Virus record (IMG/VR): IMGVR_UViG_3300032257_000005
Location: 64,001-86,291 of that record
Length of the DNA: 22,291 bases
DNA from: a virus
Taxonomy: Duplodnaviria; Heunggongvirae; Uroviricota; Caudoviricetes
Reading direction: 5' to 3' (one strand)
A program made the position numbers and the translations under genes. Numbering within the stretch: position 1 is the stretch's first letter; every line of letters begins with the position of its first letter. Under the pieces are notes generated by a model. The model saw only the letters and a program-made list of their open reading frames with translations, ran no database searches and had not been told where the DNA came from. This document shows positions 1,841 to 20,734 of the stretch, piece by piece.

Positions 1841-1868
1841 TTGTAAATTATTGTTTTTATAGTAAAAT
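1841..1868 (+). promoter_or_regulatory. Putative sigma70 promoter for the tRNA transcript
   Basis: TTGTAA-N16-TAAAAT about 50 nt upstream of tRNA-Pro; the region is AT-rich, so a chance match is possible. Confidence 0.4.
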
Positions 1869-1919
1869 ACACAGCATGAAACGAATTAATTCACAAGAAA
1901 AACCGAATCACCCCAATAA

Positions 1920-1997
1920 CGGGGTGTATTGTCAGCTTGGTAGACGACTCGGTTTGGAACTGAGAGGCCGTGGGTTCAAATCCCACCACCCCGACCA
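1920..1997 (+). tRNA. tRNA-Pro(UGG) with encoded CCA
   Basis: Acceptor CGGGGTG/CACCCCG; D-arm TGTC-AGCTTGGTA-GACG; anticodon arm CTCGG-TTTGGAA-CTGAG (TGG at 1955-1957); T-arm GTGGG-TTCAAAT-CCCAC; ends A-CCA. Confidence 0.95.
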
Positions 1998-2020
1998 ATT
2001 ACAACAACAGAGCTAATTAA

Positions 2021-2094
2021 AGCTCTGTCGTATAACGGTAGTACAGTTGATTTTGAATCAACAAGTTTCAGTTCAATTCTGAACAGAGCTGCCA
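2021..2094 (+). tRNA. tRNA-Gln(UUG) with encoded CCA
   Basis: Acceptor AGCTCTG/CAGAGCT; D-arm GTAT-AACGGTA-GTAC; anticodon arm GTTGA-TTTTGAA-TCAAC; T-arm TTCAG-TTCAATT-CTGAA; ends G-CCA. Confidence 0.93.
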
Positions 2095-2399: not shown

Positions 2400-2440
2400 G
2401 CCTCCTTGCTGTAATTGAATTCTAATTACACTTTGGAGGC
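2400..2440 (+). promoter_or_regulatory. SD-sequestering hairpin upstream of the tail tube gene
   Basis: GCCTCC (2400-2405) pairs with GGAGGC (2435-2440); inner stem TGTAATT/AATTACA. Confidence 0.65.
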
Positions 2441-2447
2441 TTTTCTA

Positions 2448-3647
2448 ATGGGACAACAATTTTCAGATTCAAACCGAGTAGGTGTACGTTATATAGCAGA
2501 GGCTTCATTTGCTGTTCAACCTACTGGCCCTAATATGCAGGAGTTAAATTTTACTTCTGAATCCTTTAAATCAAATGTAAATACCGTTACATCAGATACT
2601 ATCCGTTCAGACCGAAACGTATCAGACATTACACAAGTTGGTGGTGGTGCTGGTGGTGATGTTGGTTTTGAATTACGTTATGGTGATATAGATACTTTGC
2701 TTGCTGGCGCATTACAAGGTGCATGGGCAACGACTACTGTATCCGCAACAGTTGCATCATCTTACTTTTCCGGTGCTGATATCCATGTTAACGATGCTTT
2801 AACGGCTGCTGATAATATATTAGTGGGTCAATTACTACGTGTAGCAAATGCTTCTGCAATAGCTAACGATGGTGACTATCGAGTAACCGGCGTTTCTGCC
2901 GTAGGTGCATCAACAACAATCGTAACACTTGCTAATGCAAGTTCTGGTGTTGCTGCTGCTTTTACTTCAGATGTATTTGCTGCCACGACTACATTACGCG
3001 GTAAGAATTTACGTAACGGTGTACTTGCACAAAGCTATACGATTGAAAAACAATTCGCCGATGTATCAGCTACAGCCGTTTATACTGGTATGAGAGCAAC
3101 CACACTTAGCCTTGCGTTTGATTCACAGGCTATCATGACTGGTACTATCGGTTTTGCCGGTGTTGGTCAAACAGCCGCTTCAGCAACAATAGCTTCAGCT
3201 ACAACAGCCGCTTCAACTAATCTTGTTATGAACGCATCTAATAATGTTGCGCGTATATGGGAAGGTGGACAGGCTATCACAGGCATTGCATTTCAAAGCG
3301 TTTCAATTGATTTAAACAATAACCCGCGTGATCAACCTGTAGTCGGTTCTGCAAACCTTGCCGGTATCGGTACAGGTCGTTGTGAAGTAACTGGATCTAT
3401 GACCGCTTATTTTGAAAATAATACTTTGATTAATAAGTTTACGGCAGGTACTAAATCAAATTTCCGTTTTCAAATTACCGATGCAAGTGGAAATAGTTAT
3501 GTTGTCGATATTCCAAATACTACCTATACAGATATGACTATTGTAGCGGGTGGCCCTAATCAGGATATCGTACAAGAAGGATCATGGGGTGCTGCTGTAG
3601 ATACTACAGGTACTTATGCAATCCAAATAGATGCACTTGATGCATAA
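2448..3647 (+). CDS. Major tail tube protein (Phage_tube_2-like)
   Basis: GGAGG SD before ATG 2448 (track start 2415 is a TTG extension); SDTIRSDRNV motif; position before chaperones and tape measure. Confidence 0.85.
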   Translation: MGQQFSDSNRVGVRYIAEASFAVQPTGPNMQELNFTSESFKSNVNTVTSDTIRSDRNVSDITQVGGGAGGDVGFELRYGDIDTLLAGALQGAWATTTVSATVASSYFSGADIHVNDALTAADNILVGQLLRVANASAIANDGDYRVTGVSAVGASTTIVTLANASSGVAAAFTSDVFAATTTLRGKNLRNGVLAQSYTIEKQFADVSATAVYTGMRATTLSLAFDSQAIMTGTIGFAGVGQTAASATIASATTAASTNLVMNASNNVARIWEGGQAITGIAFQSVSIDLNNNPRDQPVVGSANLAGIGTGRCEVTGSMTAYFENNTLINKFTAGTKSNFRFQITDASGNSYVVDIPNTTYTDMTIVAGGPNQDIVQEGSWGAAVDTTGTYAIQIDALDA

Positions 3648-4086: not shown

Positions 4087-4397
4087 AATGGAACTTAGAA
4101 TGGGGCAAACAAGAAACGTTTTTAGAGGGGCTTGTACAGCAAGGAATGAATGTACAAGCGTTAAGGAATAAGCCAATACTTGAATCAAAGTATGAAAATA
4201 TTTATAACGCTTATTCATTAATGCATAGAAGTAGAAGGGCGGAAATGTCTGGTGCATTACCAATACCTTTAACTGAAATAGAATGTTATTGCAGATTATT
4301 TGATGTTATTGATAGGGAATTATTAATAACAGTTGTTATAGCAATGGATAATGCTTACTTGGATTGGGTTGAAGAACATGCCAACAGAAATACTTGA
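4071..4397 (+). CDS. gpT-like C-terminal part of the frameshifted tail chaperone
   Basis: Track ORF 4146..4397 extends upstream to the slippery site; RSR...PIPLTEI...AMDNAYLDW resembles gpT-type sequences. Confidence 0.75.
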   Translation, partial: VVNCLKWNLEWGKQETFLEGLVQQGMNVQALRNKPILESKYENIYNAYSLMHRSRRAEMSGALPIPLTEIECYCRLFDVIDRELLITVVIAMDNAYLDWVEEHANRNT

Positions 4398-7300
4398 ATT
4401 AAAAGTTGATTCCAAAGGTGTTGTAACAGGTCTGAAACGAGCTGAACAAGCTAATGACAAGTTTTCAAGAAATGTACAATCAACATCTAAAAAAACTGGT
4501 GGCGCATTTTCAAAACTTCAAGGTTCTATTTTTAGTTTAAAAGCTGCATTTGTAGGTTTAGGTGTAGGATTTTTATTTGTTAATGCAATTAAATCATCAA
4601 TAGAATTTAATGCAACTATATCTAATCTATCTGCTATTACTGGTGCTACTGGTAAAGATTTAGATTTCTTAAAAGATAAAGCAAAAGAATTTGGTGAAAC
4701 AACTACTTTATCTGCATCTGGTGTTGCTGAAGCATTTAAATTAATTGCATCTGCTAAACCTGATCTTTTGGAAAGTGGTGCGGCATTAGCGTTTGTAACT
4801 AAAGAAGCTATTACCCTTGCTGAAGCTGCAAACATATCTATTCAGCAATCTGCAATATCATTAGGTAGCGCATTAAACCAATATGGTAAGGGTGCTGAAT
4901 CTGCAACTAAATTTATTGATGTTCTTGCGGCTGGTGCAAAATTTGGTGCATCTGAAATAGCTGATACAAGCCAAGCATTAAAACAAGCGGGTACGGTTGC
5001 GGCATCTGCTGGAATTTCATTTCAACAATTAAATGCAAGTATTCAAATATTAGCGGGTGTTGGTCTTAAAGGTGCTAGAGCTGGTGTTGGCTTAAGAAAT
5101 GCATTTTTACTATTACAAAAAAATGGCATCGGTGTAACTAATGGGATATTCAATTTAAATAATGCATTAGAAGAATTAGCACCTGATGTTGATAATACAA
5201 CTAAATTAATGGAAATATTTGGTACTGAAAATGTTGTTGCAGGTCAAAGATTAATTTCAGCAAGAAAAGAATTAATAGCAATGACAAGTAAGGTTAATGA
5301 AAATGGTGTTGCATTAAAACAAGCTAGAACTAATGTAGATAATTTACAAGGTGATTTAAAAAATCTTGGAAGTGCGTTTGAAGGTTTGCAATTAGCTATA
5401 ACTGAAGGTGCTGATTCTCCATTAAGAGGATTAGTACAATCATTAGCAGATCTTTTGAGATTTATGTCAGATAATATTGATGTAATTATTTCATTTACTA
5501 AAGCATTAGGTACATTTTTTATTCTGACAAAGATAGTCAATTTATTCACTAAATTAAAAGCTGGTGTTACAGCAATGATAGCTGCAAATAATTTAGCGGC
5601 TGCGGCAACGGCTGTAACAACTGAAACAATGGTTGCATCGGCTGCGGCAACAACGGCTGCAAGTACATCAATGGCTGTACTTGGTACTACTGCATTAACA
5701 ACATCAAAACAATTAGCTCTAGCGAATAAAACAGTTAAATTAAGTAGTGCAACTACAGCCGGTCTTGGTACTGTAATGAAAAAGACAACTGTAGGCATGG
5801 GTTTAATGGGTGCTGCTGGTGCTGGATTACGCGGCATTATGACTTTACTAGGTGGCCCTGTTGGGTTATTTATTACAGCCGCTAGTGCTTTAGTGTTTTT
5901 TACTAGCAACATGAAATCTGCTGAAGAAAGAATGGGTGAATTAAATGGTGAAGTTGATAAATTAAATGCTTCATTAGGTAAACTATCAAGATTAGAAGTT
6001 GCTGCTGCTTTTGATACTGCAAAAGATAAGGCATCTGATTTTCAGAAAGAAATAGCAAACGCTCAAACTGAAATAAAAGGTATTCGACAGCAACAATTAA
6101 GATTTGGTCTAAGCACTTCTATTTATAAAGGCATGGAAAAGCAAATTAGAAATATAAAAATACAGGTAGAACAATGGAATGAAGGATTGATTAGAGTTCA
6201 AGCTACTGCTGAAAAATTAAGACAGCAAAAAGACTTTTTAGTACCTGCTTTAGCAGATACACCAGATCGAGCTGCATTAGCTAAATCAATTAATGATGCT
6301 AATATAAAAAGAAAAGAAGATGCAAAGCCTGAAAATATTGCAAAAGGTCTTGAATCTAAAATAGCTTTTGCTACAGCACCATTTTTAGGTGGTCAAACTG
6401 AATTAAGAAAAGCACAACAAAAATTAGAGGAATTACAAAAGCTGAAACAAGAATTATCTAATCCTGTTATATTAAAAGCTGTTTTAAAAATTGGTGGAAA
6501 AAAAGCAATAGATAATCTTAATTTTGCATTAGATGCGGCAAAGAAAAATGTTGATGATATAAATGTAAAATTAAGTAAGCCTGTTAAAACAGTTGGGCAA
6601 AAATTTGCTGATGATCTTAAGACGCAAATTAATTTATATGGAAAAACAGAACGTGAAATAAAAATCGCGCAAGTTGCACAAGAAGCATATAACGCTGGCA
6701 TAACAAAACAAATAGGTTTAATTAAAATGCTGGCAGGTGAGTTATTTGATCTAAATAAAGCACGTCAAATAAGAGAAGGTGTTGATCCTACTATTGCAAT
6801 ACAACGTGAGATTGATCAGGTAAACAGATTGCGCGGCCAATCTGGTGCGGCTGGTATTACTGATGATCAAGCAAGACAAGCTATTAGGAATTTAACAGGT
6901 GTTGCTACTGCTACTGATAAACTAAAAGTACAGGAAGATATTTTAAATCTTGCTATTCGTGAAGGTGTATTAACAATACCTGAACAAACTAGGGCGTTAT
7001 CTGAATTAGCGTTTGCTAAGGAAAAGGTACGTCAAGCCTCAATGGATCTAACTTCTGCCGAACGTGAAGCAATAGTAATACAGCGTTCAGAAATTTCTTT
7101 ACAGCAAGCACGAGATCAAGCTGATTTTACAAAAGGTAGAATAACCACTATTGATTTAATTAAGCGACAAAATAAAACAACAAAAGCAAGTATTGAATTA
7201 TTGAAAAAAGAAGCGGCTGCTGCTAAAGCTGCTGGAATGGAATTAAAAGAAGCTAGAATAAATGAACAAATTATCTCATTAGAAGCGTCATTAACAAGTG

Positions 7301-7836
7301 CATCTGATTTAGTACGTGGTGATTTTCAAGATGCATTTACCGATACGTTTGATAGTTTGATTATGGGAACTAAATCAACAAGTGATGCATTTAAAGATTT
7401 AGCAAAAAGTATATTAGCTTCATTTAGTAGAGTGATTTCACAAAACTTAGGTGAAAGTTTAGCTAATTCATTATTCAGTTCAAGCACATCAAGCGGCGGT
7501 GGAGGCGGTAGTAGTGGCTTTGGTGGAATAATTGAAAGTGCTTTAGGTGCTGTATTTGGTGGTGGTAGTGAAAGTGGTGGCGGCTTTGCTGGTGGTGGTT
7601 CGTTTCGTGTAGGTGGTTCAGGTGGTGTTGATTCTCAATTAGTACAATTTAAAGCATCACCTAACGAAACAGTAACGGTTACTAAGCCTGATCAAAAAGG
7701 TGGCAACGGCGGAATGACGGTCAATAATTATTTCACGATATCTGCACCTAACGGAAACGTTAGCGCACAATCAGAACAGCAAGTAGCAACGGCTGCTGGT
7801 CGTGGTATACAGAACGCAATGCGAAGGAATACATAA
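4378..7836 (+). CDS. Tape measure protein (TP901-family core)
   Basis: About 1150 aa, Ala/Gly-rich; LSAITGATGKDL...AKEFGETT core; C-terminal FAGGGSFRVGGSGGVDSQLVQFKASPNE. Start MPTEIL at 4378 preferred over 4351. Confidence 0.93.
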   Translation: MPTEILELKVDSKGVVTGLKRAEQANDKFSRNVQSTSKKTGGAFSKLQGSIFSLKAAFVGLGVGFLFVNAIKSSIEFNATISNLSAITGATGKDLDFLKDKAKEFGETTTLSASGVAEAFKLIASAKPDLLESGAALAFVTKEAITLAEAANISIQQSAISLGSALNQYGKGAESATKFIDVLAAGAKFGASEIADTSQALKQAGTVAASAGISFQQLNASIQILAGVGLKGARAGVGLRNAFLLLQKNGIGVTNGIFNLNNALEELAPDVDNTTKLMEIFGTENVVAGQRLISARKELIAMTSKVNENGVALKQARTNVDNLQGDLKNLGSAFEGLQLAITEGADSPLRGLVQSLADLLRFMSDNIDVIISFTKALGTFFILTKIVNLFTKLKAGVTAMIAANNLAAAATAVTTETMVASAAATTAASTSMAVLGTTALTTSKQLALANKTVKLSSATTAGLGTVMKKTTVGMGLMGAAGAGLRGIMTLLGGPVGLFITAASALVFFTSNMKSAEERMGELNGEVDKLNASLGKLSRLEVAAAFDTAKDKASDFQKEIANAQTEIKGIRQQQLRFGLSTSIYKGMEKQIRNIKIQVEQWNEGLIRVQATAEKLRQQKDFLVPALADTPDRAALAKSINDANIKRKEDAKPENIAKGLESKIAFATAPFLGGQTELRKAQQKLEELQKLKQELSNPVILKAVLKIGGKKAIDNLNFALDAAKKNVDDINVKLSKPVKTVGQKFADDLKTQINLYGKTEREIKIAQVAQEAYNAGITKQIGLIKMLAGELFDLNKARQIREGVDPTIAIQREIDQVNRLRGQSGAAGITDDQARQAIRNLTGVATATDKLKVQEDILNLAIREGVLTIPEQTRALSELAFAKEKVRQASMDLTSAEREAIVIQRSEISLQQARDQADFTKGRITTIDLIKRQNKTTKASIELLKKEAAAAKAAGMELKEARINEQIISLEASLTSASDLVRGDFQDAFTDTFDSLIMGTKSTSDAFKDLAKSILASFSRVISQNLGESLANSLFSSSTSSGGGGGSSGFGGIIESALGAVFGGGSESGGGFAGGGSFRVGGSGGVDSQLVQFKASPNETVTVTKPDQKGGNGGMTVNNYFTISAPNGNVSAQSEQQVATAAGRGIQNAMRRNT

Positions 7837-19748: not shown

Positions 19749-20046
19749 CTTATTTGTAATATCAATATGTCTTTTGTATGGTTGTAGTTCTATTCAGGAA
19801 AAATCAATTAACGTATCTAGCAAACAGAAAATTAATTGTAGCAGTCTTGAAATACAGAAACTAATTTTACTTAAAGTTAAATTTAATATTGTATTTGATG
19901 AAAGTGGTGAACGCTATGCTGGTTTAGATGGTAAAAATTACGGCAACTTATCTAAAAACATGCAAGCCATTATCAAAGGTATTAAGCAATTAAAAGGCGG
20001 TATACAATTATATAAAACCTGCATAGCTGATTTTAACCAGAATTAG
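19738..20046 (+). CDS. Outer-membrane lipoprotein spanin (Rz1-like)
   Basis: Lipobox LLYG|C at Cys16; ...YGNLSKNMQAII pattern. Confidence 0.78.
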   Translation: MKISLFVISICLLYGCSSIQEKSINVSSKQKINCSSLEIQKLILLKVKFNIVFDESGERYAGLDGKNYGNLSKNMQAIIKGIKQLKGGIQLYKTCIADFNQN

Positions 20047-20734
20047 CAACAAGTAAATCATGTTCTGTATTTATACTGTCACCAGCCTTATCATTAAATT
20101 CATAACAATAAACAATACCATCATTTTCTAGTGTTCGCATTTGCTCAAGCGATTCACTTTTTTCTAATGATTTATTTTTCCATGCCTTATAATAAGTTAA
20201 AAATGAAACATTATACCCATAAATACCACAATGCTTTTTAGCAAATGTTATTGGATAACGTGTAAAAAATAATGCTTTATTATTTCTATTAATTATTACT
20301 TTAATGACGGATTCATCATGCATTTCTTTATCAGTTATATCTTCATACATTGATATCATAGCTCTATGCTTATTATAAACAGGTATATTATCTAATAAGT
20401 AATTTACTTTTTTAATAGCATCAGGGTTAACATTCCAGTTATCACCTTGTACATTAATAATAGAATCGGAATTACTTAATTTTAATTTTGTTGCTATGTA
20501 AGCACAACGTTCAGTACCATTTTCACAAATAATATTTTTTGTATTAACAATCTCAACACGCGAATCAAAATCCATACCAGCAATAATATCACTATCAGTC
20601 GCAACAATAATTCTATCTATTTCTGATTTAAGTGCATTTTCAACTGTATGTTGAATAACAGGCTTGCCTTTTATTTTGCGTAACATTTTATTCTTAACAC
20701 GATGCGAATTAATTCTTGCGGGTATAATTATCAT
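20033..20734 (-). CDS. kdsB: CMP-Kdo synthetase (3-deoxy-manno-octulosonate cytidylyltransferase)-like
   Basis: IPAR.NS.R...K.L..I.GKP.IQH, VATD, GTER, INVQGD, HCGIYGY, LEKSESLEQMRTLE motifs. Confidence 0.9.
   Translation of the reverse strand: MIIIPARINSHRVKNKMLRKIKGKPVIQHTVENALKSEIDRIIVATDSDIIAGMDFDSRVEIVNTKNIICENGTERCAYIATKLKLSNSDSIINVQGDNWNVNPDAIKKVNYLLDNIPVYNKHRAMISMYEDITDKEMHDESVIKVIINRNNKALFFTRYPITFAKKHCGIYGYNVSFLTYYKAWKNKSLEKSESLEQMRTLENDGIVYCYEFNDKAGDSINTEHDLLVANSG

Follow-up and report, generated by a model that had tools for sequence, protein, structure and literature searches.

Leader hairpins that may compete with the acceptor stems of two adjacent phage tRNAs

The DNA analysed here (the window, 22,291 nucleotides in length) covers the right-hand 22 kb of a phage genome in IMG/VR that is 86.3 kb long, has terminal repeats and derives from a microbial mat sample. 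The window has a G+C content of 32.9%. Two tRNA genes, both on the plus strand, lie between a block of leftward genes that ends at position 1691 and the tail tube gene (2415-3647), which is followed by the tape measure gene (4351-7836) and then by genes for baseplate proteins. The first tRNA gene (1920-1997) encodes tRNA-Pro(UGG) and the second (2021-2094) encodes tRNA-Gln(UUG), and each is recognized by ARAGORN and by the Rfam tRNA model and includes an encoded CCA end. The tRNA-Pro is of a phage-only type, with a D-arm that reads GUAUUGUCA...GGUAGACG. The tRNA-Gln is AT-rich and forms a weak predicted cloverleaf (−19.9 kcal/mol).

A consensus scan places a putative sigma-70-type promoter (TTGTAA-16 nt-TAAAAT) at 1841-1868 on the plus strand, from which transcription of the tRNA genes would start near 1875-1876. 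The resulting pre-tRNA-Pro would carry a 5′ leader of about 44 nt (1876-1919). The two tRNAs are separated by a spacer of 23 nt (1998-2020) that constitutes both the trailer of tRNA-Pro and the leader of tRNA-Gln. Directly after tRNA-Gln, a strong Shine-Dalgarno sequence (AAAGGAG) precedes a mini-ORF of only three codons (ATG AAG CTA TAA, 2117-2128), and behind it is a very basic 49-aa ORF (2150-2299) with its own Shine-Dalgarno sequence (TAGGAG). The latter ORF is without a Pfam match and has a weak PHROG match to which no function is assigned; searches of PHROGs and Pfam likewise returned nothing informative for the small ORFs that adjoin the tRNAs. A plus-strand hairpin with a T-run that resembles an intrinsic terminator (2307-2328) closes the unit before the tail tube gene. 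An Rfam search of positions 1700-2420 identified no family besides the two tRNAs and no partial tRNA in either leader. A hit to freshwater-2 that overlaps the 3′ half of tRNA-Gln and the next ribosome-binding site was rejected as weak (E = 0.7; 21.6 bits versus a gathering threshold of 49.9).

Each leader can form a hairpin with the 5′ acceptor strand of the tRNA it precedes. In the Pro leader, the arm CACCCC (1909-1914) duplicates acceptor positions 66-71. It pairs with GGGGTG (1921-1926) at tRNA positions 7-2, which leaves a 6-nt loop (AAUAAC, 1915-1920) that contains the RNase P site (1919/1920). In the Gln leader, the arm ACAGAGCT (equivalently ACAGAGCU, 2007-2014) is a copy of tRNA positions 65-72 and pairs with positions 8-1 (AGCTCTGT, 2021-2028). 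Again the loop has 6 nt (AAUUAA, 2015-2020), with the RNase P site (2020/2021) at the junction of loop and stem. These elements had been pointed out in a preliminary description of the DNA as CACCCC-AATAAC-GGGGTG (1909-1926) and ACAGAGCT-AATTAA-AGCTCTGT (2007-2028), and the letters given there are exact. Its statement that each leader duplicates the 3′ acceptor strand of its own tRNA and spans a 6-nt loop also holds when compared with the actual 3′ strands, CACCCCG for tRNA-Pro and CAGAGCT for tRNA-Gln.

The copied segment is 6 nt long for tRNA-Pro and 8 nt for tRNA-Gln, or 9 nt if A2006 is included. Identity between leader and 3′ acceptor strand ends almost exactly where the pairing ends (6-9 nt), as is expected of a complement that is kept for pairing. 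Both hairpins can be extended into tRNA positions 9-11, and thereby cover the start of the D-stem as well. When folded in isolation, the hairpins have predicted stabilities of −11.0 kcal/mol (Pro) and −13.0 kcal/mol (Gln), which were equalled by four and by none of 200 shuffled sequences, respectively. The other two tRNAs of this genome both lack a leader hairpin. These reside at a second locus outside the window (G000:C1:33769-33985), which comprises a tRNA-like gene of 99 nt whose anticodon arm is odd and a tRNA-Glu gene, each followed by the repeat CCATA(C/T)AAGCCAAGCATTTA.

Several estimates bear on whether such hairpins could have arisen by chance. Shuffled leaders reach the observed perfect stem at a frequency of 2.7e-2 for Pro and 8e-5 for Gln, and mock leaders consisting of real genomic 30-mers or 23-mers do so at 5e-3 (Pro) and at most 2.4e-4 (Gln). 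The joint chance probability of both hairpins is about 1e-6 to 1e-4, with the shuffles giving a value of about 1e-6. As a background, we used 352 other phage tRNAs and the criterion of a perfect stem of at least 6 bp with a loop of 3-12 nt. Only four of these tRNAs (~1%) have such a stem. The loop does not exceed 8 nt in one of them, no stem reaches 8 bp, and phage tRNAs in this set show no general enrichment of leader hairpins. Both the leader shuffles and the four cases among 352 agree with the earlier assessment that the shared geometry is unlikely to be due to chance. A mutational process that creates palindromes, such as template switching, was also considered and rejected, since the whole 86-kb genome has no excess of short-loop inverted repeats: 12 perfect 8-bp examples are present versus 17 ± 5 expected, one of which begins exactly at the first base of tRNA-Gln.

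A two-hairpin geometry produced by coincidence is therefore unlikely. Nevertheless, a coincidence on the order of 1e-6 is conceivable across very many windows, and the scan from which this locus was picked spans on the order of 250,000. By this account, which we regard as rather improbable, the hairpins were simply drawn from a very large sample, and their occurrence at the Pro genes of related modules (described below) reflects shared ancestry from one evolutionary origin. The Pro stem alone, with p = 0.005-0.027, would be compatible with this account, as would a looser, free-energy measure, by which 2.0% of the background tRNAs reach the Pro value and 1.2% reach the Gln value (−11.6 and −13.0 kcal/mol). 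Opposed to it are the Gln stem, with a probability of about 1e-4 or less by itself, the joint probability given above, and the presence of like hairpins at unrelated tRNAs (tRNA-Tyr and a His-like tRNA) in modules that were not chosen for them.

Relatives of this phage that were found through the tail tube protein (57-68% identity) have about 200 nt and no tRNA at the equivalent locus, which indicates that the tRNA unit is an inserted module. For the same reason, synteny yielded no homologous leaders, and a whole-record search of two related virus records gave no match. Contigs identical to the window were found in two microbial-mat DNA sequencing runs, and because they match exactly, they offer no strain variation that could be used. 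A search for RNA sequencing runs that include the locus returned none. The same mat samples (runs X1 and X2) contain a much more abundant 35-kb contig with a related tRNA-Pro that has 10 differences from window positions 1931-1998. Its leader is different and has no hairpin.

Homologous leaders were instead found at four other viral loci, which share with window positions 1841-2000 a module composed of a promoter, a leader of about 40 nt and the tRNA-Pro gene. These are L064:1165-1326, L082:2985-3131, L083:5628-5774 and L085:378-518, the last of which is GenBank MW202545.1. Window positions 1873-2000 are 83% identical to L064 by blastn. The −10 box and the subsequent CAT(C/T)ATGAA sequence align between the window and L082, L083 and L085, and this sequence is conserved 7-9 nt after the −10 box in the four module relatives. 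Apart from ATGAA, the Pro leader shows little conservation in its 5′ part. The leader includes a perfect 10-bp palindrome in the window (GAATTAATTC, 1883-1892) that is too short for a stable fold and is not present in the relatives. An ORF that runs from the conserved ATGAA through tRNA-Pro (1876-2016) was rejected as a coding region, as its frame relative to the tRNA differs among the window, L064 and L082. The contigs that host the Pro module have very different G+C contents, and L064, the relative that was compared with our phage genome, has almost nothing else in common with it. The Pro module looks horizontally mobile.

A leader hairpin is kept in three of the four homologous Pro modules. 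In L064, the stem has 7 bp, or 10 bp with its extension (−13.1 kcal/mol); in L082, it has 7-8 bp (−12.6 kcal/mol), and in L083, it has 6 bp (−8.3 kcal/mol). The leader of L085 is retained and forms no such structure, from which it follows that the hairpin is dispensable there. The hairpins of L082 and L083 are not an unbiased sample, because the search pattern by which these loci were retrieved required CACCC in the leader, whereas L064 and L085 were found without that bias.

The D-arm pattern of the tRNA-Pro occurs at nine viral loci and has no match in 185,579 prokaryote genomes (genome_contigs). Another eight phage tRNA-Pro genes share this D-arm; they lie mostly within tRNA clusters, and none of them has a leader hairpin. 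Pattern scans of viral_contigs and genome_contigs detected no close homologue of the tRNA-Gln, and a metagenome scan recovered L064 again (as L068), together with distant tRNA-Pro genes without hairpins, and nothing more. One further pattern match, in L084, was rejected as a tRNA because it is a tandem 24-bp repeat. This array (L084:9100-9253, minus strand) has at least five units of ACGGGTGTATTGTCACCCTTCATA, and no tRNA is called there. Each unit includes the first 13 nt of the window's tRNA-Pro type and then its complement CACCC.

The Pro leaders permit a limited examination of covariation, as had been proposed in the preliminary description. Among the Pro relatives, there are three changes in the 5′ acceptor strand. 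Where G2 is replaced by U2 (L082, L083 and L085), the leader has A in place of the C found in the window, which constitutes a two-sided change. Where G2 is replaced by A2 (L064), the leader C is unchanged and forms a mismatch, and two leader substitutions add pairs to U8 and A9. Where G4 is replaced by U4 (L085), the leader is again unchanged, and with a second leader mismatch the hairpin is lost. Hence the leader followed one of the three changes, missed another that is offset by a longer stem, and missed the third at the cost of the hairpin. Counted over the five sequences, a two-sided change occurs once, acceptor changes go uncompensated twice, and a leader-only loss occurs once. Overall, 80% of cells in the leader pairing can form base pairs, versus at most 54% in slid-partner controls, while the true acceptor stem of the same five sequences pairs in 100% of cells and has three two-sided changes. 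The covariation in this alignment is therefore suggestive, but it is thin and mixed, is not proof, and indicates that the hairpin can be lost.

Hairpins of the same type recur at other tRNAs within these modules. The tRNA-Tyr of L085 is preceded by CATCCC, which can pair with GGGATG across a 5-7-nt loop (−10.8 kcal/mol), and a His-like tRNA of L082 has ACCGAC opposite GUCGGU with a 6-nt loop (−9.8 kcal/mol). Both are unrelated to the Pro and Gln genes, and they are two of ten module tRNAs that were unselected for the feature, compared with a background frequency of 0.3-1.1%. A binomial estimate puts the probability of this recurrence at no more than about 0.005. With the looser energy criterion, the value is about 0.06 and the excess is not significant. 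Genes for His-like tRNAs follow tRNA-Pro in both L064 (1338-1412) and L082 (3148-3220). They have two acceptor mismatches each and the 3′ end TCACCCCAAAT, and may be decaying. For the L082 gene, the 5′ strand pairs better with the leader than with its own 3′ strand.

The leader arms might instead be neutral relics of tRNA-array evolution. The arm would then be the remnant of the 3′ end of a former upstream tRNA gene. This gene could have been a tandem copy or one for tRNA-His, which ends universally in CACCCCA, by coincidence a complement of the GGGGUG of tRNA-Pro. The pairing would be a by-product. We consider this explanation unlikely, yet it has an appreciable chance of being correct. The leader in the window (...CGAATCACCCCAATAA) resembles the 3′ end and trailer of the His-type tRNAs that come after tRNA-Pro in relatives (...GTCACCCCAAAT...), for which the ends compared are GTCACCCCAAATAAG in L064, TTCACCCCAAATGA in L082 and GTCACCCCAAAGAAA in L085. 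Similarly, the L082 leader, CCACCCAGA-ACC, resembles the end of tRNA-Pro itself, CCACCCAGACCA. Three of the four background stems of at least 6 bp (at L039 tRNA-Lys, L039 tRNA-Leu and L069 tRNA-Thr) derive from the 3′ end of the preceding tRNA, and decay of the hairpin is seen in L085.

Other observations speak against a relic. A partial tRNA copy would be expected to show identity of about 15 nt or more that includes the T-arm or CCA, but the leaders match for only 6 nt (Pro) and 9 nt (Gln), the identity to the 3′ strand stops together with the pairing, and Rfam reports no partial tRNA in either one. Moreover, two independent remnants at adjacent, unrelated tRNAs would need to have given equal 6-nt loops, and the Gln copy would need to have stayed perfect (9/9) while all other bases of the supposed parent gene disappeared. 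The leader base opposite position 2 also fits each lineage's own acceptor, both in the window and in L082 and L083.

The preliminary description had offered as an alternative that the same sequences serve as operators at the DNA level. More generally, they might be an operator, a recombinase core whose inverted arms flank a spacer of 6 bp, or a terminator of transcription on the other strand, all of which we judge to be very improbable. The arm-6 bp-arm layout does resemble that of recombinase core sites. However, one arm of each palindrome is dictated by the tRNA, and in relatives the arm sequence varies with the tRNA acceptor. The two palindromes share no sequence, and so one protein could not read both. 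In other words, neither a common recognition sequence nor conservation of the arms independent of the tRNA is observed, and the operator proposal has no support. With regard to termination, the minus-strand version of the Pro hairpin was flagged as terminator-like (CACCCCGTTATTGGGGTG followed by ATTCGGTTTT). This candidate was rejected because the nearest minus-strand ORF of at least 100 aa to the right is located at 20033-20734, with only short, probably spurious ORFs in between. On the plus strand, the hairpins have no U-tract, and a scan found no intrinsic terminator or attenuator at 1909-1926 or 2007-2028, where the tails are UAUUGUCA and CGUAUAAC.

At the RNA level, we evaluated how the leader hairpins compare with the tRNA fold by using nearest-neighbour models, which omit tRNA tertiary structure, Mg2+, modification and proteins. 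In the predicted precursor ensembles, the leader hairpins dominate with pair probabilities of 0.96-1.0. Relative to an enforced cloverleaf, the best fold with a leader hairpin gains 1.8 kcal/mol for Pro and 9.2 kcal/mol for Gln in the full ensemble. When the D, anticodon and T arms are kept, the hairpin and cloverleaf states are predicted at −27.4 versus −29.4 kcal/mol for Pro and −20.5 versus −20.3 kcal/mol for Gln. The best direct refolding path between these two states has a barrier of about 9.5 kcal/mol according to the model estimate, and we read this as exchange within about seconds. Because this barrier is so low, the hairpin is better described as a competitor than as a lock. The original proposal of an anti-acceptor latch thus survives in that the hairpins compete with the acceptor stem in folding models, but the notion that they lock the tRNA does not, given the near-isoenergetic states and the modest barrier.

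The explanation we favour, which we put forward tentatively as one that has a substantial chance of being right without being firmly established, is that the two hairpins are selected anti-acceptor RNA structures that slow or order the RNase P processing of both tRNAs. The sequences themselves, the predicted stabilities, the partial conservation and the recurrence at other tRNAs are the observed part of this explanation. Transcription from the predicted promoter, the order of folding and the effect on RNase P are inferred.

Mechanistically, the anti-acceptor arm of each leader would be transcribed ahead of its tRNA. It would pair with the 5′ acceptor strand, and with the beginning of the D-stem, upon their emergence, at a point when about 55-60 nt remain to be transcribed before the true 3′ partner is available. 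As long as the hairpin stands, there would be no acceptor stem and the RNase P site would lie in the loop, such that RNase P presumably could not cut. The 3′ acceptor strand would later have to displace the leader arm, through branch migration that begins at the hairpin's open end. As a net outcome, 5′ maturation of the two tRNAs might be slowed or ordered. Release of the 3′ end of tRNA-Pro may also be delayed, because the RNase P cut at tRNA-Gln would free the tRNA-Pro trailer. The hairpin would therefore act as a built-in anti-determinant for RNase P and not as an absolute lock.

A displaceable hairpin could also help maturation rather than gate it. The leader arm might serve as a co-transcriptional folding guard: by holding the 5′ acceptor strand and the first part of the D-stem in a harmless hairpin, it would keep a weak, AT-rich tRNA from mispairing until the 3′ strand has been made. 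This proposal seems improbable to us. The weak cloverleaf of tRNA-Gln (−19.9 kcal/mol) is what such a guard would be needed for, and the low exchange barrier (~9.5 kcal/mol) and isoenergetic states would suit a temporary placeholder. There may also be a precedent, as Wong, Sosnick and Pan reportedly described, in PNAS in 2007, how in RNase P RNA, SRP RNA and tmRNA the 5′ strand of long-range helices is sequestered by labile non-native hairpins. However, with its leader the tRNA-Gln is predicted to be more misfolded rather than less, since the freed 3′ end pairs with the D-loop (−29.5 versus −20.3 kcal/mol for the cloverleaf). Furthermore, the GC-rich and stable tRNA-Pro of L082 has a hairpin too, and most phage tRNAs manage without one.

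Processing of pre-tRNAs is known to be sensitive to structure in the leader. Three reports show that structure next to the cleavage site lowers the kcat/Km of RNase P (PMC9433436, PMC10731613, PMC7897497). The first two also relate that a stem-loop in the leader of E. coli valV enforces 3′-to-5′ processing of valV-valW (citing Zhao and Harris 2019), and that N(−1)N(−2) of E. coli leaders pairs with the 3′ RCCA sequence. The phage elements are like the E. coli leaders in having a cis structure at or near the cleavage site, which in E. coli reduces the fraction of precursor available to RNase P and can determine in what order multi-tRNA transcripts are processed. The predicted hairpins (−11 and −13 kcal/mol), which place the site inside the loop or where loop and stem meet, would fit among such structured-leader anti-determinants. 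In the E. coli examples, the structure is confined to the leader or extends the acceptor stem, whereas the phage leaders are predicted to take the place of the 3′ strand and thereby undo the tRNA fold. An anti-acceptor leader would be a variant of these known anti-determinants.

Two further systems involve refolding of the precursor. In a synthetic theophylline-responsive RNase P riboswitch, a leader hairpin hides the cleavage region (Ender et al. 2021, PMC7897497), so that refolding has to precede the action of RNase P, as is proposed for the phage precursors. Unlike the phage leaders, this riboswitch is an engineered element gated by a ligand, and what it sequesters is the single-stranded leader and not an acceptor strand. 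No aptamer, sensor domain or ligand is evident in the 23-44-nt phage leaders (Rfam, 1700-2420), which sets them apart from riboswitches. In mouse n-Tr20 C50U, a non-native pre-tRNA fold impairs RNase P (PMC8915964). There, as is proposed here, the rate of processing depends on how the precursor is balanced between the cloverleaf and another fold. However, the mouse case is a pathological misfold in the tRNA body that is driven by mutation, whereas the phage leader arm is apparently maintained in several phages.

Short repeats of tRNA sequence next to tRNA genes also have precedents. The tRNA-linked repeats of E. coli, which are mentioned in PMC8144298, are partial tRNA copies beside tRNA genes, and like the att duplications of integrases they place a short repeat of the tRNA 3′ end adjacent to the gene. 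These repeats are at least 18 nt long, lie downstream or at the borders of elements, and are not placed for pairing with the 5′ strand through a 6-nt loop, whereas the phage leader copies are 6-9 nt long and directly upstream. The open-access literature searched contained no leader that repeats the 3′ acceptor strand so as to take its place. The earlier statement that no equivalent had been described consequently applies to the strand-copying leader within that literature, and not to inhibitory leader structure as such, which is known from valV, RCCA pairing and the synthetic riboswitch.

A bolder version of the RNase P reading, which we offer as a speculation with little probability behind it, is that a mobile lineage of phage tRNA modules uses anti-acceptor leaders as natural programmed gates on tRNA maturation. 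In this version, the precursors would be inactive and not tRNA-shaped. Their release would come after a delay or be cued, for example by an RNA chaperone, by a helicase or by the small basic protein whose gene lies just downstream. If true, such a programmed gate would be the natural counterpart of the engineered RNase P riboswitch.

If the arms are relics instead, they illustrate that misleading structures can arise from the ends of adjacent tRNA genes, which matters for regulatory interpretations of tRNA flanks. RNase P is usually viewed as constitutive, and few natural cis elements time the 5′ maturation of tRNAs, the leader of E. coli valV being one. Competition between a leader and the 3′ strand for the 5′ acceptor strand would, if true, give phages a simple and evolvable means for timing or ordering their tRNA supply, and would be a natural template for the synthetic control of tRNA processing.
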